Positions 4,896-61,657 are shown, numbered from the stretch's first letter. The stretch is DNA of 64,000 bases from Dehalococcoidia bacterium UBA7891 (GCA_002500485.1 DLRJ01000033.1:7035-71034), one strand, 5' to 3'. Numbers and translations are program-made. The notes: generated by a model from the sequence alone, not told the origin.

Positions 4896-6164
4896 TTGCC
4901 AGGTCCGTTAGATGGAATAAAAATCGTTGAGTTCACCCAAATAATAGCTGCCCCGTTTGGAGGCATGTTATTGAGTGACATGGGTGCTGAGATAATTAAA
5001 ATCGAACCCATTGAAGGCGAACCTTGGAGACTCCACACTGAATTTCTACCCAAGGAAAGTAAAACATTCATAGCCTTGAATCGGGGGAAAAAAAGTCTTC
5101 CGTTGGATCTTCAAAGTAAAGAAGGTCTTGAGATCGCCCAGAAACTTGTGGCAGATGCCGATGTGGTTATCATAAACGCTCGACCAGACGTCCCTAAAAA
5201 GTTGGGGATTGACTACGAAACCCTATCTGAAGCCAACCCAAAGTTAATATATTGCGATAACACAGCATTCGGCCGACAGGGCCCTCATGGCTATAGACCA
5301 GGTTACGATCTGATTATTCAAGCTATGAGTGGTCTTTTAGCTGCTGACAATAAGGTCGTTGATGGTGTCCCACAACAGGTGACTGCGACTGCCGTTGCAG
5401 ATTACACCACGGGAGTTGCGATTGCCTGGGGTGTTAGCGCGGCCTTATTTTCGAGGGAACGTACCGGTAAAGGCCAAAAAATCGACACAACTCTGCTTTC
5501 GACATCTCTACTCATCCAAGGTGGGTTTATGGAGGTGGAAGAACATGGAAAGGAAGAGAAAGATGAACTGGTGGAGACTTTGGGTGCCTTAAGGCAAGCT
5601 GGCCTGCCGTACCAAAGCCTGTTGGACCAACAACAAATTTTCTCGCCATTTAATACAGCATTTCGTATCTATTACACCACATACCAAACTGCCAATGACG
5701 TGATTGCCATCGCTTGCTTAAGCAACAGGCTTAGAAAAAAAGCTGCCGATGCAATTGGTGTGGTTGATCCACGGTTTTCAGAAGGCTACGACCCTGAAGA
5801 TCCATCCATAGTGTCGGCAATAGAATCCCTATCGGAAGAAATGAAAACCATATTACTGAGTAAAACCGGTGAAGAATGGCTTTCGATCCTTGATGCAGCG
5901 GGAGTTCCGGCTGGTCCTGTGAGGTTTATACAAGAACTGACTAATGACGAACAAGTGATTGCAAATGATATGGTGGTAGAGGTAAATCACTCACTTGCTG
6001 GGAAAATTCGGATGGCTGGGCCCATGATACAAATGAGCGAAACCCCTTTGGCGGTGAAATCGGCATCTCCTGCTTTAGGGGAACATACTGATGAAATCAT
6101 GCTCAATCTCGGCTATTCTGAAGACGAGATTACCGATCTAAAATCCCGGAATATAACCCTCTGA
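4896..6164 (+). CDS. family III CoA-transferase (CaiB/BaiF family)
   Basis: PLDGIKIVEFTQIIAAPFGGMLLSDMGAEIIKIEP is the canonical N-terminus. TTG start with GGAG upstream. Confidence 0.9.
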   Translation: MPGPLDGIKIVEFTQIIAAPFGGMLLSDMGAEIIKIEPIEGEPWRLHTEFLPKESKTFIALNRGKKSLPLDLQSKEGLEIAQKLVADADVVIINARPDVPKKLGIDYETLSEANPKLIYCDNTAFGRQGPHGYRPGYDLIIQAMSGLLAADNKVVDGVPQQVTATAVADYTTGVAIAWGVSAALFSRERTGKGQKIDTTLLSTSLLIQGGFMEVEEHGKEEKDELVETLGALRQAGLPYQSLLDQQQIFSPFNTAFRIYYTTYQTANDVIAIACLSNRLRKKAADAIGVVDPRFSEGYDPEDPSIVSAIESLSEEMKTILLSKTGEEWLSILDAAGVPAGPVRFIQELTNDEQVIANDMVVEVNHSLAGKIRMAGPMIQMSETPLAVKSASPALGEHTDEIMLNLGYSEDEITDLKSRNITL

Positions 6165-13881: not shown

Positions 13882-13955
13882 ATTTATACGTCAATCCTTG
13901 CGTTGACACTGCTTGCCTTGCCTTACTATTATTAATTCTGTTCATTTCTAGTATT

Positions 13956-13974
13956 AGCTGCTTGTGAAGCAGCT
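13956..13974. promoter_or_regulatory. perfect palindrome AGCTGCTT-GTG-AAGCAGCT upstream of the DHDPS-family gene (possible operator or small hairpin)
   Basis: 8+8 nt inverted repeat with a 3-nt spacer, about 35 nt upstream of ATG 14009. Confidence 0.35.
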
Positions 13975-14008
13975 ATATGAATAAGTTCACATATTGAGGT
14001 TCATTTGC

Positions 14009-14980
14009 ATGGCTGAATACAGCAAACCCGAAGCGGTTGATTGGGCGAAAGAAAATCTTCGCGGGCAATGGTCCACCCTAATGACCCCTTTTACGTCAGA
14101 AGATGAGATAGATGAAGAGGGACTTCGCAGAGATATACGACATGTAAAATCTTTAGGTACCAAAGGTGCTGGTTGCACCTGGGGCATGGGGGAATTCTGG
14201 ACTCTAACTAAAGAGGAAAGATTCCGAGTCTATGACATTGTTAGCGATGAAGCTGGAAATAACTGGCCAATTGGAGCTCATGTGTCCCACACATCTTTAA
14301 AAGAAATGCTAGATCTGGCCAGCTATGCCGAACATGCTGGGTTTGATTTACTAATTGTGGCTGCTCCTTATTTTGCTACACGAACTGAAGATCAAGTGAT
14401 AGATTGGGTAGGAAGCTTAGCCGACAACACAAATTTGGCGATTATGTATTACAACTCTCCACAATTTGGAACTGTTCTAGATGCAAACGGGTTAGAGCGC
14501 ATTTGCAATATTTCCAATGTAGTTGGAGTCAAAGAGGCCAGTTTCAATCCAGAACTTTCAATTGACACTCACTTAAAAATAGGTAAGCAAGCCATCATAA
14601 GTACCCCCGATGAATGGATATTCCAAAAAGGAAAAGAACTAGGTTTTGAACAACAAGTTATGTTTGCCAACACCTCTGACTGGAGATTTGATACACCTGA
14701 CTCCAACTACTATGTACAGTTTATTGACAAAGTGATGGAAGGGGACCTTGATAAGGATTTCTATAACACTAACATAAAGCCAATTAAAGAGGTTTCAGAT
14801 AAATGGTGGAAATACACTGTGCAGAAGATGGGGGGAGCATTACCTGCCTCCTTATGCAAATACTGGGGTGAACTCATGGGCATGTCAGGCGGACATGTCA
14901 GGGCACCACTGACCGATCTTACAGATGATGAAAAGAAACGATTAAAAAATGATATAGCCGCTGCCACAGGCAGGCTGTAA
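14009..14980 (+). CDS. dihydrodipicolinate synthase/N-acetylneuraminate lyase family class I aldolase (not the housekeeping DapA)
   Basis: Contains VVGVKEAS (Schiff-base Lys context) and an N-terminal MTPFTSEDEIDEEGL. The track start is TTG 13994. ATG 14009 has GAGG 9 nt upstream. Confidence 0.8.
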   Translation: MAEYSKPEAVDWAKENLRGQWSTLMTPFTSEDEIDEEGLRRDIRHVKSLGTKGAGCTWGMGEFWTLTKEERFRVYDIVSDEAGNNWPIGAHVSHTSLKEMLDLASYAEHAGFDLLIVAAPYFATRTEDQVIDWVGSLADNTNLAIMYYNSPQFGTVLDANGLERICNISNVVGVKEASFNPELSIDTHLKIGKQAIISTPDEWIFQKGKELGFEQQVMFANTSDWRFDTPDSNYYVQFIDKVMEGDLDKDFYNTNIKPIKEVSDKWWKYTVQKMGGALPASLCKYWGELMGMSGGHVRAPLTDLTDDEKKRLKNDIAAATGRL

Positions 14981-15021
14981 ATAGAAACACAGAACAGAAT
15001 TAGTCACGAGGAATACACAAA

Positions 15022-16005
15022 ATGATTCTTATGGTAAGTGTCCAAGATTTATATGAAGCAAAGCAAGCTCTAAAAGGCGGAGCTGATATAGTCGATGTCA
15101 AGAACCTTCAAGAAGCCCTAGTAGGTTCGGCTCATCCTAACGTAGTGAAAGAAATCAGAGATGAAGTTCCAAGTGCACACCACGCAAGTGTCACCTTAGG
15201 AGTTGTGCCTAACCAAATAGGCACCGTCTCTATGGCTGTTTATGCCGCCGGAATCCTGGACGCAACTTCGGTCAAAGTAGGCTTCATGGTGAGTGAATAC
15301 GATGTGGCACTAGAAACGTTATTAGCAGCAAAAGAAGCTCTAATAGGAACTCAAACTAAACTAATTGGCTCACTTTTTGCAGACAATCTACTCTATGACG
15401 GTGGCATTGACCCAGACCTCATGGTGCAATTGGCGAAAGAAGGTCAATGTGACGGTTTTTTAATAGATACACTTGTAAAAGACGGTAGAAATTTATTCGA
15501 CTTTGTACCTGAAGATCGTCTGAAAGAAATGGTTTTGGAGGGAAAAGAATTGGGCATGAGCACAGCCCTGTCAGGCCATTTGAAGATGAGTGACCTTGAC
15601 GAGCTATCAAGAGTCAATCCTGATATTGTTGGAGTCAGAGGAGCCGTTTGCCAAAAAGGAGATCGTGACTCTCGGGTTCACTGGGAATCTGTATCGGAGT
15701 TCAAAAAACAACTAGATCTCAGGCAAACCGGCGAAATAGATGTATATCCTGAAAATAGAACCTCATCCGTAAACCAAGAATCAAACGGATGGATAATAAT
15801 AGATGGCACAGGAAAGACCTGTGCCGGGATAATAGCAACTCTTAGTGAGCAAATAAATGCCGATACCGCGTCGTTTGTTGAAGTGATAATACCTGACGTT
15901 TTAAACACATATGACTTAATAGTCTGGGCAGAAAAAAACAGCCATGACATTGTTACTCAGAGAAAAGATGCAGAAGGTTCTGTGAGAATGCTTATTAAGC
16001 CATAA
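15022..16005 (+). CDS. MfnB-like (5-formylfuran-3-yl)methyl phosphate synthase family domain fused to a C-terminal TusA/SirA-like domain
   Basis: The N-terminal ~235 aa align by eye with MfnB (MILMVSV..GGADIVDVKN.., SVKVGF, DIVGVRGAVCQKGDR). The C-terminal ~70 aa (IIDGTGKTCAGIIATL...VEVIIPDVLNTYDLIVWAEKNSHDIV...VRMLIKP) follow the TusA fold pattern with its Cys retained. Confidence 0.7.
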   Translation: MILMVSVQDLYEAKQALKGGADIVDVKNLQEALVGSAHPNVVKEIRDEVPSAHHASVTLGVVPNQIGTVSMAVYAAGILDATSVKVGFMVSEYDVALETLLAAKEALIGTQTKLIGSLFADNLLYDGGIDPDLMVQLAKEGQCDGFLIDTLVKDGRNLFDFVPEDRLKEMVLEGKELGMSTALSGHLKMSDLDELSRVNPDIVGVRGAVCQKGDRDSRVHWESVSEFKKQLDLRQTGEIDVYPENRTSSVNQESNGWIIIDGTGKTCAGIIATLSEQINADTASFVEVIIPDVLNTYDLIVWAEKNSHDIVTQRKDAEGSVRMLIKP

Positions 16006-16032
16006 GGCAGCAGCAAATCAAAAATTAGGATG

Positions 16033-16064
16033 CACTCGATGATTCATTTCGTCGAGTGTTTTTC
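16033..16064 (+). terminator. rho-independent terminator
   Basis: CACTCGATGA-TTCATT-TCGTCGAGTG forms a 10-bp stem (one G-U pair) followed by TTTTTC. Confidence 0.8.
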
Positions 16065-16090
16065 TATTATGCTAGGATTAAAGAACTGTT

Positions 16091-23194: not shown

Positions 23195-24649
23195 ATGAGC
23201 TATAAAAACCTGAGCGAATTCATTAGTTTTTTAGATTCTAAAAATCAAGTGCAATATATAGACGCTCAGGTGAGTAGGGATTTAGAAATTAGCGAGGTAA
23301 CCGATAGGGCAGTTAAGTCAGGAGGCCCTGTTCTGTATTTCCGTAATGTAGAAGGATTCACAATACCTGTTGTGACCAACCTATTTGGTACACACCAACG
23401 AATGGCTTGGGCTTTGGGTGTAGAAAATACTGATGATTTAACGCAGAAAGTCCGTGACATTCTGGGAATTGTAAAAACACCTCCCCAGTCAATGTTAGAC
23501 AAACTAAAAACTCTCAAAGACATGGCAAGCCTGGCCCGAACACAGCCCAAAAGAATTTCATCTGCTCCCTGTCAAGAAATAGTAAAGACGGGGCAAGATG
23601 CTAATCTAAATCATTTGCCTCATCTGACCTGCTGGCCTATGGACGGTGGCAGATACATCACTCTACCTCTGGTGATTTCTAAAGATCCTAGTTCAGGAAA
23701 AAGAAATGTCGGTACTTACCGTATGCAAATCTATGATTCTCACACTGCAGGCATGCATTGGCAGTCACATAAAGTCGGAGCAAGCCACTACAGGTCCGGC
23801 GAACTGAAGAAGTTACCAAAGATGGAAGTTGCCATTGCGTTAGGTTCCGACCCTGTAACTATGTGGACAGGAGCATTACCGTTACCTCCTGACATGGACG
23901 AAATAGCGGTATCAGGGGTATTGAGAAACTCATCTGTCGAAATGGTTAAATGTAAAACAGTTGACCTCGAAGTACCCGCCCATTCTGAAGCCGTGCTGGA
24001 AGGATATATAATCCCTGGGGAATTGAGGGAAGAGGGCCCGTTCGGTGATCACACCGGATACTATTCTCTTGAAGACAATTATCCTGTTTTCCATCTCACT
24101 GCTTTGACACATAAAAGACATCCCATTTATCCGGCCACTGTGGTAGGAAGGCCACCATCCGAAGATTTCTTTATGGGAAAAGCTGTAGAGAGGTTGATGC
24201 TTCCTGCACTCCAATTAACTTTGCCAGAGGTAGTAGATATTAATATGCCAGCAGAAGGTGTTTTCCATAATTTGGTTATCGTTTCAATGAAAAAGGAATA
24301 TCCAGGACACACAAGAAAGGTCATGAATGCAATTTGGGGATTGGGATTGATGATGCTGGCAAAAGGGATAGTCATTGTAGACGACACAGTTAATGTCCAT
24401 GATTTGTCTGAAGTTGCGTGGCGAGTCACTAGCAATATTAATCCAGATAAAGACATTGTGATCACCGAAGGACCTGTCGATGACTTAGATCATGCAAGCC
24501 CAACACCTAAATACGGGAGTAAAATCGGGATAGATGCTACAAAAAAGACCGCACTTGATGGAAGGGAAAGAATTTGGCCTCCTGACGTAGTAATGTCAGA
24601 GGAAATAAAATTGCTGGTCACTAATCGCTGGTCAGAGTACGGTTTTTGA
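23195..24649 (+). CDS. UbiD-family (prFMN-dependent) decarboxylase
   Basis: 484 aa. Typical UbiD N-terminus (LSEFISFLDSKNQVQYIDAQVS) plus GTYRMQ and EGPFGDHTGYY motifs. Confidence 0.92.
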   Translation: MSYKNLSEFISFLDSKNQVQYIDAQVSRDLEISEVTDRAVKSGGPVLYFRNVEGFTIPVVTNLFGTHQRMAWALGVENTDDLTQKVRDILGIVKTPPQSMLDKLKTLKDMASLARTQPKRISSAPCQEIVKTGQDANLNHLPHLTCWPMDGGRYITLPLVISKDPSSGKRNVGTYRMQIYDSHTAGMHWQSHKVGASHYRSGELKKLPKMEVAIALGSDPVTMWTGALPLPPDMDEIAVSGVLRNSSVEMVKCKTVDLEVPAHSEAVLEGYIIPGELREEGPFGDHTGYYSLEDNYPVFHLTALTHKRHPIYPATVVGRPPSEDFFMGKAVERLMLPALQLTLPEVVDINMPAEGVFHNLVIVSMKKEYPGHTRKVMNAIWGLGLMMLAKGIVIVDDTVNVHDLSEVAWRVTSNINPDKDIVITEGPVDDLDHASPTPKYGSKIGIDATKKTALDGRERIWPPDVVMSEEIKLLVTNRWSEYGF

Positions 24650-25521
24650 TATTCATGCCCCTTAACAGGTTTTGGCCGAAAATACCCAATTTCTTTGATG
24701 CAATAAAGTTTCAAGAATCTCTTTTCGCACTCCCTTTTGCCTACATAGGAATGCTGCTTGCGATTCGGGGCCTACCTGATTTTCAAAGCTTTTTTTGGAT
24801 AACACTCGCAATGGTGTCGGCTAGAACCGTGGGTATGATTGCTAACAGAATTATAGACAGACACATAGACTCAAAAAATCCACGGTCGTCGCAAAGGCAT
24901 CTCCCACGTGGAATTCTTTCAGTTACCGATTTGTTAGTCCCTGGAATAATTTCCTCACTCATTTTTATGCTATGCGCTTACATGCTTAACACTTTAGCAC
25001 TGATTTTAGCCCCTGTAGCTCTCATATACCTTGTGGTGTACCCGTTTACCAAAAGGGTCACTTGGTTGGCTAATTTGCTTCTTGGATGGGCTCTCGCCAT
25101 AGCCCCAGCAGCAGCTTGGATCGGAATGCTTGGTAAACTAGGATGGCAGCCTGTTTTACTTTCAACTTCAGTGGCCCTTTGGGCTGGAAGTTTTGACATC
25201 ATCTACCATACACAAGATGTTTCTTTTCAAAAAAAAGAGAAGTTACATTCAGTCGCATCTCGTTTTGGAATCTCTAAAGCCTTTAAAATTGCACAGTGCA
25301 TGGATCTATTGGCTGTATTGTGTCTAATAATACTAGGCGCATGGATGCAATTAGGAATATTTTATTACGGTGGCTGCGGATTAAGTACAATTTTTCTTGT
25401 CTACAAATATATATTAGTAAAGCCTAGCGATTTATCTAAAATGGGAATGAGCTTCATGAGAATTAACGCTTTTGTATCTTGTTCCATGTTGTTAGGTACA
25501 ATTGCATCATTAATAGTGTAA
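24646..25521 (+). CDS. UbiA-family aromatic prenyltransferase (4-hydroxybenzoate polyprenyltransferase / MqnP-like)
   Basis: 291 aa, polytopic. Contains the NRIIDRHIDSKNPR Asp-rich motif. It overlaps the UbiD stop by 4 nt. Confidence 0.88.
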   Translation: MIFMPLNRFWPKIPNFFDAIKFQESLFALPFAYIGMLLAIRGLPDFQSFFWITLAMVSARTVGMIANRIIDRHIDSKNPRSSQRHLPRGILSVTDLLVPGIISSLIFMLCAYMLNTLALILAPVALIYLVVYPFTKRVTWLANLLLGWALAIAPAAAWIGMLGKLGWQPVLLSTSVALWAGSFDIIYHTQDVSFQKKEKLHSVASRFGISKAFKIAQCMDLLAVLCLIILGAWMQLGIFYYGGCGLSTIFLVYKYILVKPSDLSKMGMSFMRINAFVSCSMLLGTIASLIV

Positions 25522-25523
25522 AA

Positions 25524-26123
25524 ATGGAAAAACTCGAGGCACGAATTGTGGTTGGTATATCTGGGGCTAGTGGATCCCTTTTAGCCGCCAAAACGGTTGA
25601 CGCATTGTTAGACAGAAAAGTTGGGGTATCGCTGATCGCGTCAAACCCAGCCCGAATGGTATGGCAGCACGAGATGAGTATGTCCTACGGAGAAAGTATT
25701 GAAGAATGGTCATCCAACAATAATTTTGAGCATTTCGCTATAGGGGATTTTAAGGCGCCTATAGCGAGTGGAACTTACCCAACTACTGGAATGGCCATAG
25801 TCCCATCTAGCATGGCAACAATTTCTGCAGTGGCAAAAGGTCTATCAGATAATTTAATAAGAAGAGCTGCCGACGTTTGCCTAAAAGAGAAAAGACCTTT
25901 AGCAATGGTTCCACGAGAGTCTCCGCTTAATGCTATACATCTAGGTAACATGAAATACCTCGCCACTTTGGGTGTGACTATCCTACCTTCAGACCCTCCA
26001 TACTACCTGCCTATAACGACCCTTGAGGAAGTTGCCAATTTTACAGCCCAGAGAATATTGATAGCACTAGGTATAACCGACCAACTACCTGAGGAGATGC
26101 AATATAGAGGTCCAATTATTTAA
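25524..26123 (+). CDS. ubiX: UbiX-family flavin prenyltransferase
   Basis: Contains RIVVGISGASGSLLAAK and PSSMATISAVAKGLSDNLIRRAADVCLKEKRPL. ATG lies 2 nt after the UbiA stop (the track ORF starts earlier, at 25479). Confidence 0.92.
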   Translation: MEKLEARIVVGISGASGSLLAAKTVDALLDRKVGVSLIASNPARMVWQHEMSMSYGESIEEWSSNNNFEHFAIGDFKAPIASGTYPTTGMAIVPSSMATISAVAKGLSDNLIRRAADVCLKEKRPLAMVPRESPLNAIHLGNMKYLATLGVTILPSDPPYYLPITTLEEVANFTAQRILIALGITDQLPEEMQYRGPII

Positions 26124-28535: not shown

Positions 28536-29738
28536 TTGAAACCCCAAGCTTTGAAAAATGTGAGGATTCTGGATTTGACTCACTATATATCTGGGCCATA
28601 CTGCACAAAACTATTGGGTGATTTTGGGGCCGATGTCATAAAAATTGAAAACCCTCTAGTCGGTGACCCTTGCAGAAAAATGCCACCCTTTGACGAAACC
28701 AACCCGAATAGTAATGACAGTCTTTTATTTCAATATCTCAACACCAACAAGAAAAGCGTTGAACTCGACTTAAAATCCGATTTCGGTCATCTTGCTGCTG
28801 AAGAATTAGTGAGGAATTCTGACATACTAGTGGAGAATTTTCGACCTGGAACCCTGGCATCCTACGGTTTAACAGAGAGCAAACTGCGTACCTTAAACCC
28901 CAATTTAATTGTTGTATCTATTAGTAATTTTGGCCAAACGGGACCTTATAGAGACTTTGAGGCAACTGATCTAGTATTTTATGCTTTGGGGGGATTGATG
29001 TTCATTTTTGGATCAATTAACAAATCTCCTCTCAAACACGCTTTCCACCAAGCACAATTCAAAGCAGGCACTAACGCAGCCTCAGCAGCATTAATGGCTT
29101 TCTACGAGATGATAAATTCGGGTACCGGTCAGAAAGTGGACATATCTATTCAGGAGAGCATGGCTGCAGCGGTACGTGATACAACCACAAGTTACGCCGC
29201 CTCTGGCATAGTTAGAACGAGACAAACATTAATGAACGGAGAGCTTCCTCGGGCACCTATACAAGTCAAAGATGGATATATCGTCCCAATCACTTTTGGA
29301 TCTACCGACTGGAACAAAACTGCCAATCTGTTGGGAGATGAAAGTTTGGCTGACCACAAATTTCAGACACCTGAAGGAAGAAGGATGCATGCTGAGGAAT
29401 TTGAGAACTTGGTGAAAGCTGCTTTCATCCGTAGAGGTAAACACGAACTTTTTTACGGAGCCCACTCTCACCGTGAACTGGTTTACGGATTAGTACAAGA
29501 CGCAGCGGATCTAATAGAAAACCCGCAATATCAACATGATCAATATTTTCAGGCTATTGGTAATTCCGGTTCAGATACACCCAAATTTCCAGGAAGACCT
29601 TTTAAGCTATCCAAAACTCCTTGGAATATACAAACAACTGCACCTGCATTAGGGCAACATACCGAGGAAATACTATTTAATAAATTAAATTTACCTATCG
29701 ATAAATTTCAGAATACTGGGCGGTCAAATGAAAAATAA
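28536..29738 (+). CDS. family III CoA-transferase
   Basis: Contains NVRILDLTHYISGPYCTKLLGDFGADVIKIENP. TTG start. Confidence 0.9.
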   Translation: MKPQALKNVRILDLTHYISGPYCTKLLGDFGADVIKIENPLVGDPCRKMPPFDETNPNSNDSLLFQYLNTNKKSVELDLKSDFGHLAAEELVRNSDILVENFRPGTLASYGLTESKLRTLNPNLIVVSISNFGQTGPYRDFEATDLVFYALGGLMFIFGSINKSPLKHAFHQAQFKAGTNAASAALMAFYEMINSGTGQKVDISIQESMAAAVRDTTTSYAASGIVRTRQTLMNGELPRAPIQVKDGYIVPITFGSTDWNKTANLLGDESLADHKFQTPEGRRMHAEEFENLVKAAFIRRGKHELFYGAHSHRELVYGLVQDAADLIENPQYQHDQYFQAIGNSGSDTPKFPGRPFKLSKTPWNIQTTAPALGQHTEEILFNKLNLPIDKFQNTGRSNEK

Positions 29739-31077
29739 TGGCATCCTCAACGGTATCCGAGTAGTTGAGCTAGGCCAACTAATCGCCGTGCCTTACGCCA
29801 CAAAACTCCTATCAGACATGGGTGCAGAAATTATCAGGTTGGAATCAGCTCAACGGCCGGATGCCTACCGGCTTGCTGATTTTTACGATGAGAGAGAGGA
29901 TGGGAAATATTGGAATCGAGCCATAAATTTTAATGAGCAAAATAGAAACAAACTAAGTCTTGGACTAGAATTAGACCATGAAAGCAGCCTTGAATATTTG
30001 CACGATTTGATTAGCATAAGTGATGTCTTTGCATGCAATTTCACCCCTAGAGTGATGAAAAAATTCGGCCTAGAGTACGAGCATCTCCAAAAAATACGTC
30101 CCGATATAATCGTCATTTCATCAACGGGTTATGGTCACACTGGACCGTGGTCGAGTTTTGGTGCCATAGGGTTTGGTACTGAGGCTGCGTCAGGACTTGC
30201 GGCCGCAACAGGATACGAAAATGGCCCACCAGTTCAACCAGAAATACCTTATCCAGATTACACTGCCGCCGAGCACACTGTCTTTGCTGTAATGGCAGCG
30301 CTTATACATAGACTAAAGGAAGGCGAAGGCCAGTTTATTGAGATATCGCAAGCAGAATGTGTTACATCAACTATCCCGGAAACAATACTTGAATACACAG
30401 CCAACAAAAAGATAGTTAAGCGAATGGGCAACTCGCATCCCAACATATCTCCACATGGCTGTTATCCATGCAAAGGTCAAGATAAATGGATAACCATCAC
30501 TGCTAATTCTCAGGATCAATGGAAATCATTATCAAATTTGTTGCTTCCAGAAACTGGCACTGACAATCGATTTGAATCTAATGAGTCACGCATACATAAC
30601 CGAAAAGAATTAGACAAATTGATATCTTCAAGAACTCTATCATGGGACAATGTCGTATTGATGAATACTTTACAAAGAAAAGGTGTGGCTGCAGGGGCAG
30701 TATTGAATGGTAAAGAACTGCTATTTAATGAGCATTTGAACCAAAGGGATTTTTTTGAAATAGTTGATCATCATCCAGAAAGTGAAGTTCCCACACTTCC
30801 ATATCCTGGCAAGCCATGGAAAATGTCGGCAAATTCAGATGTCAAAATGAAGGGAGCACCTTTATTTGGACAGCATAACGAATCAATATTGAAAAATCAC
30901 CTGGGATTGACCAACGAATCCTATGATGCACTGATTAATGAAGAAGCAGTGGTTAACTATATTAAATTAGACCCCAAAGAAATTCTTGTATCAAGAGAGG
31001 CGAGAGAAGAAGAAGGGTCTATATATTCTTATGATCCTGATTTCAAATCCACCATAAAATCTTATTTCAACATTTGA
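29728..31077 (+). CDS. family III CoA-transferase
   Basis: Contains GIRVVELGQLIAVPYATKLLSDMGAEIIRLES. It overlaps the previous gene by 11 nt. Confidence 0.9.
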   Translation: MKNNGILNGIRVVELGQLIAVPYATKLLSDMGAEIIRLESAQRPDAYRLADFYDEREDGKYWNRAINFNEQNRNKLSLGLELDHESSLEYLHDLISISDVFACNFTPRVMKKFGLEYEHLQKIRPDIIVISSTGYGHTGPWSSFGAIGFGTEAASGLAAATGYENGPPVQPEIPYPDYTAAEHTVFAVMAALIHRLKEGEGQFIEISQAECVTSTIPETILEYTANKKIVKRMGNSHPNISPHGCYPCKGQDKWITITANSQDQWKSLSNLLLPETGTDNRFESNESRIHNRKELDKLISSRTLSWDNVVLMNTLQRKGVAAGAVLNGKELLFNEHLNQRDFFEIVDHHPESEVPTLPYPGKPWKMSANSDVKMKGAPLFGQHNESILKNHLGLTNESYDALINEEAVVNYIKLDPKEILVSREAREEEGSIYSYDPDFKSTIKSYFNI

Positions 31078-36381: not shown

Positions 36382-38622
36382 ATGGCACAAAAATTAGAAA
36401 CTTCAGATAGATCCGAAATGCTATTGAACATCTCAAGACGTGTCGCTAGAGACGAATCAATAGAAGAAATAATAGCTAGCATAATTGAAGTCACAACTTG
36501 GGAATTGAAGGCAGAAAGAGGATCTTTGTTTTTAAACGATGCAGCAACGAACGAGCTATACACCAGATTCGCCCAAGGTGCTAATTTAAGAGAAATACGT
36601 ATACACAACAAAAGCGGGATAGCGGGATCAGTTTTCCAATCAGGAGTCGGCGAGATAATCCACGACGCATACAATGACGATCGTTTTAATTCTGCAGTAG
36701 ATCAGCAGACCGGATATATGACCAAGAATATTCTATGCGCCCCGGTCAAAACCTTAAACGGAGTAATTATTGGAAGCGCGGAGGTGCTAAACAAAAAATC
36801 CGGTCGCTTCACCAAGAAAGATTTGGAACTTTTAGAAGCTATGACGGAGCAAGCAAGTATAGCACTGCAAAGTGCTCAATTTGTGGAACAAATGCAGAAA
36901 AGTAGAGATGAAGAGAAAAAGCTTCTTGACGTGGTCTCGGAAGTGACTGCAGAGATAGACTTGCCGACAATGCTAAGCAAGGTTATGGGGGAAGCTACCA
37001 AAATGCTTAACGCTGACAGGTCTTCGATATTCCTTAACGATCCAAAAACTAATGAGCTTTGGTTGCAAATTGGTGATGGCTTGGAAAGTACTCAAATAAG
37101 GTTTCCAAATCATCTGGGCATTGCAGGTACCGTTTTTACTTCTGGCCAAACTATCAACATCCCTCACGCTTATGCAGATCTAAGGTTTAACCCAGATTTT
37201 GATAAACAAACCGGATATTTCACTAGGTCGATATTGTGCGTCCCGATCATAAATAAGGACAGAATAATATTAGGTGTTACACAAGTCCTTAACAAAAGAG
37301 GAGGCCCGTTTAGTGAAGAAGATGAGCAAAGATTAAAAGCTTTTACCGCACAAATTTCTGTCGGCCTAGAAAATGCTCAGCTTTTTGCGGATGTACAGAA
37401 TATGAAAAACTATAACGATAGCATCTTACAAAGTGCAGCCTCAGGCGTGATAACTCTAGATGAAGATGAAAAAATAATAACCTGCAATGAAGCAGGTCTT
37501 AGAATACTAAGCATTACTGGGTCAGAAATATTACAGAAACCCGCTGTAGATTTCTTCATCGGAGAAAATGAATGGTTAATGGAGCGCATCAACAAAGTAC
37601 AGGATGAACAACAAACTGACACCTTTGTAGATGTATCCTATCAAACGGACGACCAAACATTATCACTCAATGGCACTGTTGCTCCCCTCATAAGCATGGA
37701 TGGGAAAAAACTTGGGGTCATGGTGATGCTAGAAGACATCAGTACAGAAAAGAGAATGAAGTCCACTATGTCCAGATACATGGACCCAGGTCTGGCGGAC
37801 CAGTTGCTTGAGGGAGATGATAATTTAGGCGGTGAAGAAAAAAAAGCAACAATTCTATTTTCAGATGTCAGAGGGTTTACAACTATCACCGAGCAATTGG
37901 GAGCCCAAGGAACCGTTCAATTACTAAACGACTATTTTTCCATCATGGTGGATTCCATAACGAACCAAGGGGGGATGTTAGATAAATTTATTGGGGATGC
38001 CATAATGGCAGCCTTCGGAATTCCATTCACTACTGATGATGACGAAGATAGAGCACTGAGAGCCTCAATCGACATGATAACCAACCTTTGGGAATGGAAT
38101 GAGGTGCGGGCCGAAAATGGGCTACCACCAATTGACATGGGGATAGGATTAAACACTGACACAGTTGTATCTGGAAATATTGGTTCCCCCAAAAGAATGG
38201 ATTACACAGTTATAGGCGACGGGGTGAATTTGGCAGCCAGATTAGAATCGGCCTGCAAACAGTACGCCGCTCGCATATTGGTGAGTGAGTTTACGCATTC
38301 CAATCTAAAAGGCGTATATAGGTCTAGGGAAATCGACAGGGTGATTGTGAAAGGTAAAACAGAGCCTGTAGGAATTTATGAGGTACTAGATTTCCATACC
38401 GCAGAAACATTCCCAAATGTAATGGAAGTATTGAACTACTTCAAAGATGGATTAGAAAAATATAGGGTTGGTGCCTGGGATCCTGCTATAAAATCATTTA
38501 AAGAAGGCCAAAGGTTAAATCCGACAGATTATATTACTGAAATGTATATAGGTCGTTGCCAAAGCTTAAAAGCAGACCCTCCGAAAGATTGGGATGGGGT
38601 TTGGGTGATGACATCAAAATAA
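36382..38622 (+). CDS. class III adenylate/guanylate cyclase with GAF-GAF-PAS sensory region
   Basis: 746 aa. Two GAF-like blocks (..ERGSLFLND..ELYTRF.. and ..DRSSIFLNDPKTNELWLQ..), a PAS-like block, and a cyclase core (ATILFSDVRGFTTITE, KFIGDAIMAAFG, DYTVIGDGVNLAARLE). Confidence 0.9.
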   Translation: MAQKLETSDRSEMLLNISRRVARDESIEEIIASIIEVTTWELKAERGSLFLNDAATNELYTRFAQGANLREIRIHNKSGIAGSVFQSGVGEIIHDAYNDDRFNSAVDQQTGYMTKNILCAPVKTLNGVIIGSAEVLNKKSGRFTKKDLELLEAMTEQASIALQSAQFVEQMQKSRDEEKKLLDVVSEVTAEIDLPTMLSKVMGEATKMLNADRSSIFLNDPKTNELWLQIGDGLESTQIRFPNHLGIAGTVFTSGQTINIPHAYADLRFNPDFDKQTGYFTRSILCVPIINKDRIILGVTQVLNKRGGPFSEEDEQRLKAFTAQISVGLENAQLFADVQNMKNYNDSILQSAASGVITLDEDEKIITCNEAGLRILSITGSEILQKPAVDFFIGENEWLMERINKVQDEQQTDTFVDVSYQTDDQTLSLNGTVAPLISMDGKKLGVMVMLEDISTEKRMKSTMSRYMDPGLADQLLEGDDNLGGEEKKATILFSDVRGFTTITEQLGAQGTVQLLNDYFSIMVDSITNQGGMLDKFIGDAIMAAFGIPFTTDDDEDRALRASIDMITNLWEWNEVRAENGLPPIDMGIGLNTDTVVSGNIGSPKRMDYTVIGDGVNLAARLESACKQYAARILVSEFTHSNLKGVYRSREIDRVIVKGKTEPVGIYEVLDFHTAETFPNVMEVLNYFKDGLEKYRVGAWDPAIKSFKEGQRLNPTDYITEMYIGRCQSLKADPPKDWDGVWVMTSK

Positions 38623-44415: not shown

Positions 44416-45207
44416 ATGGCTGATATTAAAGTCGTCGTTAACGGAGTCCTAGGAAAGATGGGTCAGGAGGTTTTAAATGCCGTGGATAAAACCCAAGGTA
44501 TGAAACCTATTGGTGGTTCAGATATTGCCGCCAATATTGATCAAATACCATTGCCTAATGGAGAAGGATTCATACCGGTATTTCAAAATATAAGAGATGC
44601 GGTCAAAGGAGCTGACGTTGTTGTGGATTTCACAAACGCATCTGGCGCAAAAGGTGTAATGGAAGCCGCTGCACCAGCTGGAGCCAGTTGTGTCATTGGT
44701 TCAACTGGTCTATCTCAAGAGGATTTTGAGAAGGCTAAATCGTTAGCTGAGTCTAATAACACAAGCATAATCATTGCTCCTAATTTCGCTATGGGAGCGG
44801 TATTGATGTCACATTTAGTAAAAGCAGCTGCTAGATTTTTTGACTATGCTGATCTAACAGAAGTTCATCATGAAGCGAAAATAGATGCTCCATCTGGAAC
44901 CGCTTTAGCAATAGCACAGGCAGCTGTAGAGGGGAAAGGGAGTCGCTTTGAGGCTCCACTTGCTGAAAAAGAACTTATCGCTGATACCAGGGGTGGAACA
45001 CACGAAGGGGTTGTAATACATAGCGGTAGAATGCCAGGACGAGTCGCACATCATGAGATGGTTTTTGGATCCTTAGGCCAAACTTTGACACTGCGTCATG
45101 ATTCGATAAATAGAGAAAGTTTTATGCCAGGTGTGATTATGGCAATAAAGGCCTCAGAAACATCAAATGGATTGACTGTCGGGCTAGATAAAATTATGGG
45201 CCTATAA
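44416..45207 (+). CDS. dapB: 4-hydroxy-tetrahydrodipicolinate reductase
   Basis: 263 aa. Contains VVVNGVLGKMGQ, APNFAMGAVL and EVHHEAKIDAPSGTA. Confidence 0.93.
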   Translation: MADIKVVVNGVLGKMGQEVLNAVDKTQGMKPIGGSDIAANIDQIPLPNGEGFIPVFQNIRDAVKGADVVVDFTNASGAKGVMEAAAPAGASCVIGSTGLSQEDFEKAKSLAESNNTSIIIAPNFAMGAVLMSHLVKAAARFFDYADLTEVHHEAKIDAPSGTALAIAQAAVEGKGSRFEAPLAEKELIADTRGGTHEGVVIHSGRMPGRVAHHEMVFGSLGQTLTLRHDSINRESFMPGVIMAIKASETSNGLTVGLDKIMGL

Positions 45208-45269
45208 CCCTCTCCATTTTATCAGTCGACCCATCCACCGGTTTAATATTCAAATTTACGGAGGAAAAC

Positions 45270-46304
45270 TTGGATTCTTGCAAAATTGCCGTTGTGGGAG
45301 CAACAGGAGCCGTGGGCCAGGTATTCTTGGACATTGCGGAGCAACGAAACTTCCCCATCGATGAAATAAGGTTATGCGCCTCAACTCGATCAGTCGGTAA
45401 AAAATTAAAATTTAAATCACAGGAAATAGCGGTCGAACTCTGTACCCCAAAAGTTTTGGATGAGGTTGACTTTGCATTCATTTCTGCAAGCGGTGATGTA
45501 AGCAGAGAGATTGCGCCCCTTGCGGCGAAACATGGGACGGTCGCTATTGATGACAGCTCAGCCTTCCGAATGGATGCAGATGTTCCCTTGGTGGTTCCCG
45601 AAGTAAATGTTGATGATTTATCTGATCACAAAGGAATAGTTGCCATACCAAACTGTTCTACTACCCCTTTAGTAATGGTGCTAAATCCTCTGAAGAAGAA
45701 ATCCTCCATCAAACGTGTTGTTGTCGACACCTTCCAATCTGTAACTGGAACTGGAACGGCAGCACTGACTGAAATGGAACACCAAAGCAAAGCGGTTCTA
45801 CAGGATAATCCAATCACAACCAAAGAATATCCTCACCAAATAGCTTTCAATGTATTGCCTCATATAGAACCTTTTCAAGAAAATGGGTACACAAGAGAAG
45901 AAATGAAGATGCTCTACGAAACCCAAAAAATCCTCCACGATTCCAATATTTTGGTTTCTGCGACATGCGTGAGAGTACCAGTTGCTGTGAGTCACAGTGA
46001 GGCAATTCACATTGAATTCGAAGATCCAATAACGCCTAATGAAGTCACGGAAATATTGGGAAATGAGCCGGGTATAAGGATTGTAGACGACCCATTCTCT
46101 GACGTGTATCCTATGCCGATAGACGCTGCCGGGGGCGATGATGTTCTCGTAGGAAGAATCCGAAAAGATATCTCACATCCAAATGGAATAGCTATGTGGG
46201 TTGTCTGCGACAATTTACGAAAGGGTGCAGCTCTTAATGCTATTCAAATAGCAGAGGAAATGATGAAACGCAACGTAGTTTCAGAAAGTAACTGGAGGCA
46301 ATAG
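45270..46304 (+). CDS. asd: aspartate-semialdehyde dehydrogenase
   Basis: 344 aa. Contains KIAVVGATGAVGQ, the active-site IPNCSTTPLV, and DNLRKGAALNAIQIAE. TTG start with GGAGGA upstream. Confidence 0.94.
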   Translation: MDSCKIAVVGATGAVGQVFLDIAEQRNFPIDEIRLCASTRSVGKKLKFKSQEIAVELCTPKVLDEVDFAFISASGDVSREIAPLAAKHGTVAIDDSSAFRMDADVPLVVPEVNVDDLSDHKGIVAIPNCSTTPLVMVLNPLKKKSSIKRVVVDTFQSVTGTGTAALTEMEHQSKAVLQDNPITTKEYPHQIAFNVLPHIEPFQENGYTREEMKMLYETQKILHDSNILVSATCVRVPVAVSHSEAIHIEFEDPITPNEVTEILGNEPGIRIVDDPFSDVYPMPIDAAGGDDVLVGRIRKDISHPNGIAMWVVCDNLRKGAALNAIQIAEEMMKRNVVSESNWRQ

Positions 46305-46308
46305 GAAC

Positions 46309-47202
46309 ATGGTAGATTTTGGAAGACTTCTCACAGCTATGATTACCCCGTTTGATTCAGCCGGTAATATTGACTTCCCTCAGGCCAGAAAACTTGCAAA
46401 AGGATTAGTTGCATCAGGGACTGACGGGTTGGTGATAGGCGGTACCACAGGCGAATCTCCCTCTATGTCAGATGACGAAAAGGTACAGCTATTCGCCGAG
46501 GTGAAAGAAGCTGTAGGTGACACTGCCACGGTAATCGCAGGAACCACCGATAATAATCATAGAAAATCTGTGGAACTGTCTATTGAGGCAGAAAAGGTTG
46601 GGGCTGACGGGTTACTACTGACGGTTCCTGCCTACAACAAGCCTACACAAGAAGGACTTTATCAAAACTTTAAGGCGATATCAGAAGCGACCTCTCTTCC
46701 GGGACTACTTTACAACGTTCCATCTAGGACAGCCTTGAACATGACAACAGAAACTACACTGAGACTTGCTGAGATAGATAGCATAGTGGGAGTGAAAGAA
46801 GCTTCAAGCGATTATGTTCAAATCACCAATATTATTGACAAAGCTCCCGACGGATTTAGAGTTTGGTCTGGAAATGATGACGAAACATTTCCCATCATGT
46901 GTGTTGGAGGGCATGGAGTAGTAAGTGTTGCTTCTAACCTCTACGGAAACCAGATCAAAACTATGATGGGACTCATACTCGAAGGAAATATTGAAAGTGC
47001 TGCCACCGAACACAAGCGGTTACTTCCAATTTTCAAAGCCCTTTTTGGGGTTACCAATCCTATCCCAATCAAATATGCCGTCAATCGAGTAGGGTTTAAT
47101 GCTGGATCAGTCAGGCTCCCGCTCTGCGATCCAGATGATGATTTTATATCGACCTTTAATCCTGTAATGGACGAATATGAGGCGGATCTCCCAGTTTCCT
47201 AA
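46309..47202 (+). CDS. dapA: 4-hydroxy-tetrahydrodipicolinate synthase
   Basis: 297 aa. Contains TAMITPF, GGTTGESPSMS, YNVPSRT and VGVKEAS. Confidence 0.93.
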   Translation: MVDFGRLLTAMITPFDSAGNIDFPQARKLAKGLVASGTDGLVIGGTTGESPSMSDDEKVQLFAEVKEAVGDTATVIAGTTDNNHRKSVELSIEAEKVGADGLLLTVPAYNKPTQEGLYQNFKAISEATSLPGLLYNVPSRTALNMTTETTLRLAEIDSIVGVKEASSDYVQITNIIDKAPDGFRVWSGNDDETFPIMCVGGHGVVSVASNLYGNQIKTMMGLILEGNIESAATEHKRLLPIFKALFGVTNPIPIKYAVNRVGFNAGSVRLPLCDPDDDFISTFNPVMDEYEADLPVS

Positions 47203-48696: not shown

Positions 48697-49545
48697 TTAC
48701 AGGAAATCGTTAACAAACCCTTCTAATTGTTCCAAGGCTTCTTTCTCAGGGACGCTGTCAATGGATAAAACTATTCTTTCGGCACCTGCTGAAAAAAGTT
48801 CACTTACTATACTGGGATCAGGGGTAGCACCGTAAACAGTTATTCCTATCGTGGAAAAATCCCTGCCTGATTCCTCACAGAGTCTTTTAAGTTCATTTTT
48901 ACCGCTCTCAATATCTCCAGGGGTTATACGATTCGGCATCCAAGCATCGCCCCAACTTACCACTCTTTTAAATACATTTTTTGCATGACCGCCCAGATAT
49001 ATGGGAGGGTGTGGGCGCTGAACTGGCATTGGAAAAGAATACACAGGAGGAAAATCATAATACTTACCGTGATATTCACTTTCCACCGTGGTCCAAAGTT
49101 CTTTCATGGCCATCACAGATTCTCTGGTCTGAGTCCAACGGTGGGCAAAATCACCTCCCATAATATCCGTTTCTTCTTTTAACCAGCCGGCCCCAATACC
49201 AAACAAAAATCTGCCCTTGGCATACATATCTAGAGTCGCTACCTCTTTTGCGAGTATAAGAGGGTTTCTTTCTGGCACCAAGCAAATACCTGTTCCTAAT
49301 AATAGCTTATCTGTAACTGCCGAAGCTCGACCTAAAGCCACAAAGGGATCGGCCACATCGGCATACTTTTTAGGTATCACACCACCTGGACCCGGCCAAG
49401 GTGTTTCTGCACCCACAGGTAATACTGGATGCTCAGCAACCCACAATGAATCGAATCCAGCTTCTTCCGCTTTCGCTGCCAAAACTGCTATATCAATAGC
49501 ATAATCTGTTGGAAATGTAGTTATCCCTATATTACCCATTTGCAC
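48697..49545 (-). CDS. luciferase-like monooxygenase (LLM) class, probably F420-dependent oxidoreductase
   Basis: 282 aa. Contains AEEAGFDSLWVAEHP..., LGTGICLVPERNP and FGIGAGW. Confidence 0.8.
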   Translation of the reverse strand: MQMGNIGITTFPTDYAIDIAVLAAKAEEAGFDSLWVAEHPVLPVGAETPWPGPGGVIPKKYADVADPFVALGRASAVTDKLLLGTGICLVPERNPLILAKEVATLDMYAKGRFLFGIGAGWLKEETDIMGGDFAHRWTQTRESVMAMKELWTTVESEYHGKYYDFPPVYSFPMPVQRPHPPIYLGGHAKNVFKRVVSWGDAWMPNRITPGDIESGKNELKRLCEESGRDFSTIGITVYGATPDPSIVSELFSAGAERIVLSIDSVPEKEALEQLEGFVNDFL

Positions 49546-49981: not shown

Positions 49982-50054
49982 GGCTACGTAGCTCAGGGGT
50001 TAGAGCGGGCGCTTCATAAGCGCTAGGTCGCTGGTTCAAATCCAGCCGTAGCCA
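49982..50054 (+). tRNA. tRNA with CAT anticodon (elongator Met, or Ile2 if lysidine-modified); CCA not encoded
   Basis: Hand-folded cloverleaf: acceptor GGCTACG/CGTAGCC, D arm GCTC..GAGC, anticodon loop TTCATAA, T arm GCTGG-TTCAAAT-CCAGC. There is no initiator-type GGG/CCC anticodon stem. Confidence 0.9.
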
Positions 50055-50099
50055 GAAACCAAACTGTTCTCTAAGGCTCGGTCTTACCGGGCAAAATTA

Positions 50100-50176
50100 G
50101 GGCGGTTAGCTCAGCTGGTTAGAGCGCTACCTTCACACGGTAGAGGTCAGAGGTTCGAGTCCTCTATCGCCCACCA
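50100..50176 (+). tRNA. tRNA-Val (CAC), CCA encoded
   Basis: Acceptor GGGCGGT/ATCGCCC, anticodon stem CTACC/GGTAG with loop TTCACAC, T arm AGAGG-TTCGAGT-CCTCT. Confidence 0.92.
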
Positions 50177-50182
50177 GAAAAT

Positions 50183-50268
50183 GCCGAAGTGGCGGAACGG
50201 TAGACGCGCTACGTTCAGGACGTAGTATCCGCAAGGGTGTGTGGGTTCGAATCCCTCCTTCGGCACCA
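50183..50268 (+). tRNA. tRNA-Leu (CAG) with long variable arm, CCA encoded
   Basis: Acceptor GCCGAAG/CTTCGGC, anticodon stem CTACG/CGTAG with loop TTCAGGA, a long extra arm, and T-loop TTCGAAT. Confidence 0.92.
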
Positions 50269-60618: not shown

Positions 60619-61497
60619 TTATTGAAACAATGGTAAGGCCCCTCGACATGCTAACAACAACCCGACAGCTAGTAGAACGAAGCCCATCGTAAGAATAAGA
60701 GTGTTCAGATTCACTTTCCCGGTTAACTTCGCACCATACCAACTACCAACCATAGCACCCGCTCCCATAAGGATTAAAACAGGGTAATCGACCTTTCCCT
60801 GACTAGCGTGCCCTATCCATCCTACAGCTCCCATAAAAAATCCGATAAAAAGATTAGATCCTGCAGCAATACGGGGATCGATTTTAAGAACTCTGACAAG
60901 AGCTGGTAAGCGTATGCTGCCCAAAATAAGCCCAACGGCACCGCCCAGAAGCCCAACCCCCAACCCAATTCCGGCTTCTGCAGAAACCCGCCCAGGAGTG
61001 AATAGCCCTGAAGATCCCTCTAATCCAGCCCCGAATAGAGGAGAAGTTGATTGGCCGGATTTTACACGGTTTTGGTAGATAATGATGAATTCTACTCCCT
61101 GCCACAACACGAGTAGTCCTGCGAGAAATAGGAGTATCCCTTCGTGTATTACACCACTGAGGAATCCTCCAGCAAAGGCCCCTGCAAAAGCAGGAATACC
61201 CATCACTATTACTATCCTCATGTCCACCCTACCTCCCCGCCAATGCTTTATTGCGCCTGACGGAGAACTAAGACTGCTGACCATAATATTAGTTCCTCCC
61301 GCAATGGCAGCTGGTGTCCCTAAAAGCAGCAGTGCAGGTAAGCGAATCGTTCCCAAAGCAAGGCCAACAAATCCACCAAGTATTCCTACTAATAGAGATA
61401 TAATGGTCAGTAAGAGAGCCTTCCAGACAAGATGGTCGGACGGAAGTCCAATATCTCCAAGGGTCAAAGCCATTAAATCTGAGAAAGTCTGTTCCAT
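60619..61497 (-). CDS. TauE/SafE-family anion (sulfite/sulfonate) exporter
   Basis: Polytopic, with a duplicated G-rich TM pattern (GGFVGLALGTIRLPALLL and GGAVGLILGSIRLPALV). ATG 61497 (MEQTF...) is preferred over the track start at 61590. Confidence 0.75.
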   Translation of the reverse strand: MEQTFSDLMALTLGDIGLPSDHLVWKALLLTIISLLVGILGGFVGLALGTIRLPALLLLGTPAAIAGGTNIMVSSLSSPSGAIKHWRGGRVDMRIVIVMGIPAFAGAFAGGFLSGVIHEGILLFLAGLLVLWQGVEFIIIYQNRVKSGQSTSPLFGAGLEGSSGLFTPGRVSAEAGIGLGVGLLGGAVGLILGSIRLPALVRVLKIDPRIAAGSNLFIGFFMGAVGWIGHASQGKVDYPVLILMGAGAMVGSWYGAKLTGKVNLNTLILTMGFVLLAVGLLLACRGALPLFQ

Positions 61498-61657
61498 ATA
61501 GTCTCTCTTTCCACGATTATGCGCTTTCAGAAAGCCAATGAATAGGAATGGTACAACTGTTACTAGTTCAAATGTATGATACCAAGGCACTTATCCCAAG
61601 AAACCGGATACGTAATGTCACGTATGGCATCGCTTCCAGCCAATTAGGAGAGAGAAA

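Follow-up and report, generated by a model that had tools for sequence, protein, structure and literature searches.

The closest described relatives of the system considered here are MfnB (MJ1099; PDB 4rc1 and 4u9p; Orf22 of methylotrophs), which is a TIM-barrel synthase of 4-(hydroxymethyl)-2-furancarboxaldehyde phosphate (hereafter 4-HFC-P), the superfamily of DapA and N-acetylneuraminate lyase (NAL), which includes KdgD and the archaeal KD(P)G aldolases of the DHDPS family, and the TusA/SirA/YeeD proteins. Modules resembling all three are encoded by two adjacent genes in a 64 kb stretch of DNA (the window, whose positions serve as coordinates throughout) from Dehalococcoidia bacterium UBA7891, a marine Dehalococcoidia of the SAR202 cluster. 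Few bacterial groups of the dark ocean are as abundant as SAR202, whose chemistry has mostly been inferred from unusual enzyme families. Gene 1 is predicted to encode a divergent class I aldolase of the DHDPS family that is not DapA, and gene 2 an MfnB-like barrel joined by a linker to a TusA-like domain. The ThiG–ThiS thiazole synthase and the 2-thiosugar synthase BexX offer an analogy. In these enzymes, a lysine of a TIM barrel binds a sugar phosphate as a Schiff base, and a small carrier protein of their own supplies the sulfur for a C–S bond or a heterocycle; the trio of modules may work in a similar way. However, the carriers of these enzymes are ubiquitin-like thiocarboxylates (ThiS, MoaD, CysO) and not persulfide carriers of the TusA type. 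Furthermore, they have no sequence relationship with the trio beyond the barrel fold.

The best overall explanation of the data is that the three modules constitute a self-contained enzyme system working by the mechanism proposed below, with a probability of about 0.5. The parts of this explanation differ in strength. It is probable that the trio is co-functional and distinct from methanofuran synthesis. Schiff-base chemistry on a triose phosphate and a 2-oxo acid is somewhat favoured, and sulfur transfer through Cys267 of gene 2 is a tentative proposal. We infer the function of the trio, including the sulfur-carrier role of the TusA-like domain, from sequence. All domains fall into known families or resemble them, and the novelty appears to lie in a distinct MfnB subfamily with dedicated partners. 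Judging from its gene content, the system is common to SAR202, Thermoplasmata, Marsarchaeota and related archaea. The original prediction, which had been made from the sequence of the window, suggested a different, uncharacterised small-molecule pathway. This suggestion is strengthened by the co-conservation of the modules, by the archaeal trio and by the absence of methanofuran genes from the window and from the annotated neighbours looked up.

The C-terminal domain of gene 2 is encoded in at least 431 GTDB species genomes. The best 80 of these 431, all from SAR202, Dehalococcoidia or unclassified Chloroflexota, make up the SAR202 locus set. The module is tightly conserved, with identities of 60–97%. 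The pairing seen in the window recurs throughout this set: an orthologue of gene 1 lies directly upstream of gene 2 in 78 of the 78 loci having upstream DNA. The gap between the two genes ranges from −4 to 234 nt, with overlapping stop and start codons in nine loci, and the pair stays together even where its flanks are rearranged. The modules are also fused in some relatives. A 699-aa protein (P0123) is a single DHDPS::MfnB::TusA polypeptide, and two other representatives are fragments of such an arrangement. Among representatives clustered at 50% identity, a steep step separates the fusion clade from the next proteins, which have the size of MfnB and no extra domain. One metagenome-assembled genome (MAG), QGNN01 of SAR202-II-177A, carries two gene 1–gene 2 pairs (L004 and L034), which are 94–96% and 66–74% identical to the window proteins and represent either paralogues or a mixed bin.

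In archaea, the pair is clustered with a separate TusA-like gene. The TusA-like part is a separate 90-aa gene in a soil relative (P0126, 61% identity), whose own relatives are 250-aa proteins of Marsarchaeota, Thermoplasmata and Thermoprotei. The archaeal gene order is MfnB-like, TusA-like (91–94 aa, with the Cys kept) and DHDPS-like, and the last is a clear orthologue of gene 1, with 51% identity and all special motifs in common. In some archaeal loci, a fused MfnB::TusA gene is convergent with the aldolase gene. When 80 metagenome loci of the archaeal type were anchored on the DHDPS-like gene by tblastn, 59–62 of them were found to carry MfnB-like and TusA-like genes nearby. The relatives come from peat, soil and hot springs and belong to uncultured archaeal lineages. 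When the stand-alone TusA-like protein of archaea was used as the query, only five homologous proteins and no new domain architectures were retrieved. A conserved fourth gene was also considered and rejected, as clustering of the neighbours in the 80 SAR202 and 80 archaeal loci gave only lineage-limited genes, which in SAR202 are hemA, an epimerase gene and ubiD.

Residues 3–227 of the gene 2 protein match positions 1–227 of the 228 positions of the 4-HFC-P synthase profile PF04476 (E = 8.9e-54; 183.1 bits against a gathering threshold of 22.4), and the protein matches MJ1099 (4rc1) with E = 4.5e-41. The alignment with the MfnB family that had been made by eye is therefore borne out, and all motifs quoted in its favour, among them GGADIVDVKN and SVKVGF, are present. 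In the AlphaFold (AF2) model, the MfnB-like domain has a predicted local distance difference test (pLDDT) score of 90 and superimposes on 4rc1 with a target-normalised template modelling (TM) score of 0.94 and a root-mean-square deviation, or rmsd, of 1.4 Å (Foldseek E = 1.7e-24). D25, K27, K85, D149 and K153 of gene 2 correspond to D25, K27, K85, D151 and K155 of MJ1099 and do not vary in any of the 81 SAR202 or 119 archaeal-type sequences. Roles of these residues in MfnB, with K27 forming the Schiff base, were reportedly described by Wang et al. in 2015. K155 is cited as a catalytic residue of MfnB (PMC11365854). R208 and R217 are also conserved, and the identity to MfnB (MJ1099) is 38%.

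However, the gene 2 clade differs from MfnB in several respects. Gene 2 falls below the NCBIfam MfnB equivalogs NF002573 (184.6 bits with a cut-off of 341) and NF002575 (169.8 bits with a cut-off of 304), as does an archaeal member of the clade (221 against 341 bits). The TusA-associated MfnB clade is monophyletic, with 61–76% identity internally and 32–34% to 104 canonical MfnB sequences. D61, present in 93% of these canonical sequences, is replaced by Val, and Y122, present in 90%, is replaced by Phe in 100% of the clade; P29L, A36S and A186S are further differences. D61V and Y122F are located where barrel strands 3 and 5 reach their C-terminal ends, which is the catalytic face. These two replacements suggest that late steps such as cyclisation and dehydration are altered relative to 4-HFC-P synthesis. 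The clade is always accompanied by a TusA-like module and a DHDPS-like enzyme and not by mfnA, mfnC–F or tetrahydromethanopterin (H4MPT) genes, and its hosts are lineages of aerobic heterotrophs.

The genes mfnA, mfnC–F, fhc, fae and mch are absent from the whole 64-kb window, in agreement with the original prediction, which had seen no other methanofuran or H4MPT genes there. Among the Pfam-annotated neighbours of the loci looked up, which were archaeal or divergent-bacterial, methanofuran and H4MPT genes are likewise absent, a survey in which L001–L080 and L092–L171 were not screened. The nearest canonical MfnB (P0136, 41% identity) lies beside a GHMP kinase gene and a pyridoxal-phosphate-dependent decarboxylase gene of the MfnA type, and such MfnA-type neighbours do not occur beside loci of the TusA-associated clade. 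In methylotrophs, MfnB genes cluster with mfnE, mfnF and fhc (PMC8141765). Papers on SAR202 describe C1 oxidation as tetrahydrofolate (THF)-linked only, and tetrahydromethanopterin appears in them only within the names of luciferase-like oxidoreductases. A search of a literature library found no paper linking MfnB, UPF0264 or methanofuran with TusA or SAR202, and no description of an MfnB–TusA association, of the trio or of its product. Databases name the proteins of the clade hypothetical, UPF0264 or MfnB.

Gene 1 matches the Pfam DHDPS family PF00701 from end to end (E = 4.6e-29; 101.5 bits against a threshold of 22.1). K175 in GVKEASF and Y148 in YYNSPQF are invariant in 77 of 77 sequences, and they align with the Schiff-base Lys and the catalytic Tyr of DapA (K161 and Y133) and with those of the window's own DapA. 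The earlier assignment of gene 1 to the DapA/NanA-family class I aldolases, made on its GVKEAS motif, thus agrees with the profile match and with the retention of both residues. However, the carboxylate-binding GTTGE motif of DapA, which contains T44 and T45, is replaced by W-(G/N)-M-G-E-F-W in the gene 1 group (W-G-M-G-E-F-W here). Y107 is replaced by Phe (F122), the Arg138 that binds aspartate semialdehyde in DapA has no equivalent, and there are two insertions, a clade-specific MFANTSDWRFD and a W-rich segment. Gene 1 lies under every NCBIfam equivalog cut-off, including that of dapA (TIGR00674; 78.1 against 206.15 bits), and has a weak match to Arch_KDGaldase (49.9 bits). Its closest PDB structures are DapA proteins, with E-values of only about 1e-24. 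A bona fide dapA is found at 46309–47202 within a dapB–asd–dapA cluster (44416–47202) and reaches 311 bits against the cut-off of 206. Because this dapA passes the equivalog model, the lysine-pathway function is already covered, and gene 1 is distinct from it, as had been proposed.

The linker of gene 2 has pLDDT values below 50 at residues 245–252 and no conserved positions in its alignment, and the whole protein is 323–335 aa long across the 80 loci. The C-terminal domain matches TusA as its only Pfam family, over profile positions 2–69 of 70. TusA is also the top and only sensible family for the C-terminal domains of all nine diverse relatives (best E = 8.5e-7), and precomputed Pfam annotation lists PF01206 on archaeal homologues, mostly marked weak. 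An AF2 model of the domain alone (pLDDT 94) shows a two-layer β-α-β-α-β-β fold with strands at residues 2–6, 30–35, 54–60 and 66–71 and helices at 12–25 and 42–50. The full-length PDB matches with the highest TM scores (0.78–0.81) are E. coli TusA (1dcj, 3lvj and 3lvk), YeeD/TsuB (8k1r) and the SirA-like 3hz7, with rmsd values of about 2 Å over 70 residues and weak Foldseek E-values (0.014–0.13). Every one of 81 sequences has Cys267, and the surrounding motif W-x-x-I-D-G-x-G-K-x-C-A-G-I is invariant or nearly so. The spacing D261-x-x-G264-x-x-C267 equals D13-x-x-G16-x-x-C19 of TusA when checked against the 1dcj sequence, and so the invariant Cys at the N-terminus of helix 1 is in the register of TusA Cys19. 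This Cys is also kept in all five archaeal and soil TusA-like copies that were aligned. Because synonymous sites around the Cys motif vary freely, selection acts on the protein here. The C-terminal domain is as conserved as the catalytic domain across the 80 species genomes (68–92% and 71–97% identity, respectively). The partners of the domain are aldolase-type enzymes, unlike the tRNA-thiolation, Dsr or YeeE partners of TusA, SirA and YeeD. The proposal of a C-terminal domain of about 70 aa with the TusA/SirA pattern and its Cys therefore stands as far as the fold, the Cys register and the top family in relatives are concerned, and it falls short in its Pfam score and in the CPxP motif, as described below.

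These observations establish two modules with intact Schiff-base lysines and a third with a single invariant Cys and, in the models, a TusA fold and a flexible tether. In the proposed mechanism, the operon would be expressed constitutively and would supply a DHDPS-like aldolase, a triose-phosphate-condensing MfnB-like barrel and a one-cysteine carrier. Lys27 of the MfnB-like domain would form a Schiff base with glyceraldehyde-3-phosphate or dihydroxyacetone phosphate, and the resulting phosphate would be a C6 carbonyl or of the furan type. The TusA-like domain would swing and, through a persulfide on Cys267, give sulfur to this reactive carbonyl intermediate or, less likely, tether the intermediate covalently through Cys267. 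The DHDPS-like enzyme would attach a C3 unit to the aldehyde, or take one off it, by means of Lys175 and a 2-oxo acid that is probably pyruvate. A small molecule containing sulfur would result, serving as a cofactor or as a precursor of a head group. A more specific and speculative version, to which we give a low probability, is an unrecognised primary-metabolic pathway of SAR202 and Thermoplasmata/Marsarchaeota. In this pathway, an MfnB-type reaction would produce a triose-derived dicarbonyl or furan, TusA-type sulfuration would convert it into a thiophene or thiol in a Paal–Knorr-like manner, and DapA-like extension with pyruvate would lead to a new sulfur heterocyclic cofactor or quinone head group. 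If so, SAR202 and the archaea probably came to share it through inter-domain gene transfer.

Several observations weigh against the three-module sulfur-transfer system. Compared with a gathering threshold of 28.6, the Pfam TusA score reaches only 13.9 bits with the full protein and 18.2 bits with the isolated domain. The CPxP motif of characterised TusA proteins is absent and is replaced by C-A-G-I in SAR202 and by C-T-G or C-K-G in archaea. A comparison of the C-terminal domain with E. coli TusA alone by hhalign was not significant, and a search of the PDB with the sequence profile of the domain found no TusA; the claim that TusA homology is proven from sequence alone is rejected on these two negatives. 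No cysteine desulfurase, rhodanese or other sulfur-mobilising gene is conserved among the neighbours. All catalytic residues of MfnB are kept in gene 2, which is compatible with ordinary 4-HFC-P synthesis. Regional synteny is generally conserved in SAR202 and could explain much of the adjacency there; the triple fusion and the archaeal clusters are the independent evidence. The TusA-like module could be a scaffold, a lid, a regulatory domain or an aldehyde-tethering (thiohemiacetal) domain that couples two Schiff-base enzymes whose product is sulfur-free. The missing CPxP, the sub-threshold score and the lack of sulfur-relay genes nearby would suit such a role, and the triple fusion and the flexible linker fit channelling or tethering equally well. 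However, when the SAR202 domain is aligned with the five TusA-like sequences from archaea and soil, the only residues in common are the Cys at the N-terminus of helix 1, a Gly two residues on and a W-A pair, with a (K/R)-K-G-H stretch also kept in several. One invariant Cys, placed where TusA has its persulfide, meets the needs of a carrier and exceeds those of a scaffold, and JGI annotation names the archaeal copies TusA-related sulfurtransferases. A non-sulfur role is rather unlikely, although it is the most probable of the alternatives. It is decidedly unlikely that gene 2 is simply a 4-HFC-P synthase for a methanofuran- or methylofuran-type cofactor, with the TusA-like domain and gene 1 being accessory or unrelated. 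The strong PF04476 match, the conservation of all five residues implicated by experiment in MfnB, the nearly identical fold and the name (5-formylfuran-3-yl)methyl phosphate synthase, which NCBI gives to several members of the clade, are in its favour. They are outweighed by the scores below both equivalog cut-offs, the separate clade with D61V and Y122F, the lack of mfn, fhc and H4MPT genes in the window and among the annotated neighbours looked up, and a SAR202 literature that knows only THF-linked C1 oxidation. Moreover, the partners, which are tightly conserved and even fused, have no role in the MfnA–F scheme.

Two other explanations start from neighbouring genes. The trio might produce or alter the head group of a prenylquinone of the menaquinone type, such as a quinone with a sulfur substituent, because the futalosine-type late menaquinone genes ubiD, mqnP-like ubiA and ubiX are found some 7 kb downstream in the majority of SAR202 loci, come immediately after gene 2 in two of them (L033 and L042) and adjoin the pair in convergent orientation in a divergent genome (L172). 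In addition, the DHDPS-like gene is divergently placed beside a MenA-like prenyltransferase gene in eight archaeal loci from hot springs. However, the best NCBIfam match of the MenA-like protein (DHNA polyprenyltransferase, 121 bits) is below its cut-off, such neighbours are absent from about 70 other archaeal loci, and the SAR202 cases may be residual synteny. The chemistry leading from two trioses and pyruvate to a naphthoquinone is not obvious either. This explanation is very unlikely. Even less probable is a catabolic module for recalcitrant organic matter, in which the DHDPS-like enzyme would act as a KD(P)G-type aldolase releasing glyceraldehyde-3-phosphate and pyruvate or would cleave a furan or aromatic 2-oxo acid. 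The place of archaeal KD(P)G aldolases in the DHDPS family and the Arch_KDGaldase match agree with this, as do an acyl-CoA-synthetase-like gene that follows the trio in 22 peat loci and the richness of SAR202 in catabolic paralogues described in the literature. However, the SAR202 pair lies in a conserved housekeeping neighbourhood behind a near-consensus promoter-like site, it is apparently single-copy save for the MAG with two pairs, and no paralogue expansion is seen. The MfnB-type reaction is strongly biosynthetic, and the acyl-CoA synthetase gene is limited to one group of loci.

If the three-module system indeed makes a new sulfur-containing metabolite, the MfnB family would gain a new reaction type, TusA-type carriers would gain a role beyond tRNA thiolation and sulfur oxidation, and a case of pathway sharing between archaea and bacteria would be added. 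Public labels for the clade are 'hypothetical' or MfnB, and the latter is probably misleading. At the least, an MfnB annotation in organisms that are neither methanogens nor methylotrophs should not count as evidence for methanofuran-dependent C1 metabolism.

The two genes are laid out as a bicistronic unit (Table 1), and the open reading frames and coordinates given for it in the original prediction proved right. They are co-directional with a 41-nt gap in which neither a promoter nor a terminator is predicted, and each has a GAGG-type ribosome-binding site. The ATG of gene 1 at 14009 is preceded by GAGG at 13996–13999, an alternative TTG start at 13994 being located 5' of this site, and the 327-aa reading frame of gene 2 (15022–16005) has GAGGA ahead of its start. 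As far as sequence signals tell, they constitute an operon, with a strong promoter-like site before gene 1 and a strong terminator after gene 2. The near-consensus promoter-like site had gone unremarked before; it is predicted from sequence and invariant across the five closest relatives.

Table 1. Positions of the genes, domains and flanking signals in the window.
Feature	Position	Strand	Remarks
Promoter-like site TTGACA-18 nt-TATTAT upstream of gene 1	13903..13932	+	11/12 consensus positions
Palindrome TAGCTGCTT-GTG-AAGCAGCTA in the 5' leader	13955..13975	no strand	Perfect; probably incidental
Gene 1	14009..14980	+	Divergent DHDPS/NAL-superfamily class I aldolase (predicted), 323 aa; Schiff-base Lys175 codon 14531-14533
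Gene 2, N-terminal MfnB-like TIM-barrel domain, aa 1-235	15022..15726	+	Lys27 codon 15100-15102
Gene 2, linker, aa 236-256	15727..15789	+	Length and sequence variable
Gene 2, C-terminal TusA-like domain, aa 257-327, and stop codon	15790..16005	+	Invariant Cys267 codon 15820-15822
Intrinsic-terminator-like hairpin, 11 pairs, 6-nt loop, then TTTTTCTATT	16032..16069	+	ΔG −20.6 kcal/mol, z = −6.2

The strong terminator noticed earlier is real, and its stem (16032–16059, followed by the T-run) has one pair more than the 10 bp counted at first; none of 200 shuffled sequences folded equally well. The palindrome upstream of gene 1 is likewise real, perfect and slightly longer than first described. However, it is not conserved and lies within chance expectation. 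Near relatives (91% nucleotide identity) carry the imperfect palindrome TAGCTGCTTGTTTAGTAGCTA, the perfect form occurs only in the window genome, and no comparable repeat is present in more distant SAR202 loci. A count over the whole window of perfectly matching inverted repeats, with 9 bp or more per arm and 0–8 nt in the loop, gave six hits at about four distinct sites, against a mean of 2 (range 0–4) in 10 Markov simulations. A role of the palindrome as an operator or attenuator was rejected because it is unconserved, occurs at chance-level frequency and does not fold significantly (RNA fold z-score −1.7). An Rfam search of the 5' leader for riboswitches or other known RNAs gave nothing above noise. 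A perfect hairpin with 8-bp arms, GGCACAGG-AAAGA-CCTGTGCC, extends over the codons of the invariant DGTGKTCAG motif (15805–15825) and is predicted as a minus-strand terminator-like site. It was rejected as a conserved element because the synonymous positions vary among relatives, and it is incidental. Recent horizontal acquisition of the pair was also rejected because its GC content (42.4–42.7%) matches that of the window (42.2%). The flanking genes are of the housekeeping type, with acnA, recG, a fakA-like gene and rpmB upstream and a ytxH-like gene, pheA and trkA/usp/trkH downstream.

The ubiD–ubiA–ubiX block of the window is found at 23195–26123. Its ubiD reaches 599 bits against a cut-off of 496 (TIGR03701, 'menaquinone biosynthesis decarboxylase SCO4490') and its ubiA is closest to MqnP, and the block looks like the late steps of a futalosine-type menaquinone pathway. 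The archaeal loci with a MenA-like gene are L099, L119, L121, L123, L135, L136, L143 and L149. In these, the MenA-like gene lies on the opposite strand, some 900 nt upstream of the DHDPS-like gene, which is itself located apart from the MfnB-like and TusA-like genes. In one archaeal genome (L090/L091, 12099–20756), the trio adjoins ask, asd and a complete archaeal-type shikimate cluster consisting of a DeoC-family AroA', a DHQS-II AroB', aroDE, a GHMP-type aroK, aroA and aroC. A link to aromatic amino-acid synthesis was rejected because this arrangement occurs in 0 of the 80 metagenome loci. In Marsarchaeota (L086/L087, 10001–11261), the MfnB-like gene overlaps the TusA-like gene, and next come an 82-aa Cys-rich open reading frame and a gene for a rhomboid protease; a DHDPS-like gene is absent within 10 kb. 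The acyl-CoA-synthetase-like gene of the 22 peat loci within L092–L171 (for example L129, 4764–6536) encodes an AMP-binding protein and lies directly 3' of the DHDPS-like gene on the same strand; its best NCBIfam match, MbcS, is below the cut-off.

Elsewhere in the window, three family-III CoA-transferase paralogues (4896–6164, 28536–29738 and 29728–31077) and a luciferase-like monooxygenase (48697–49545) fit the paralogue expansions reported for SAR202. The window also contains a GAF-GAF-PAS adenylate or guanylate cyclase (36382–38622), three tandem tRNA genes on the plus strand (49982–50265) and a gene for a TauE/SafE-family sulfite exporter on the minus strand (60619–61590).

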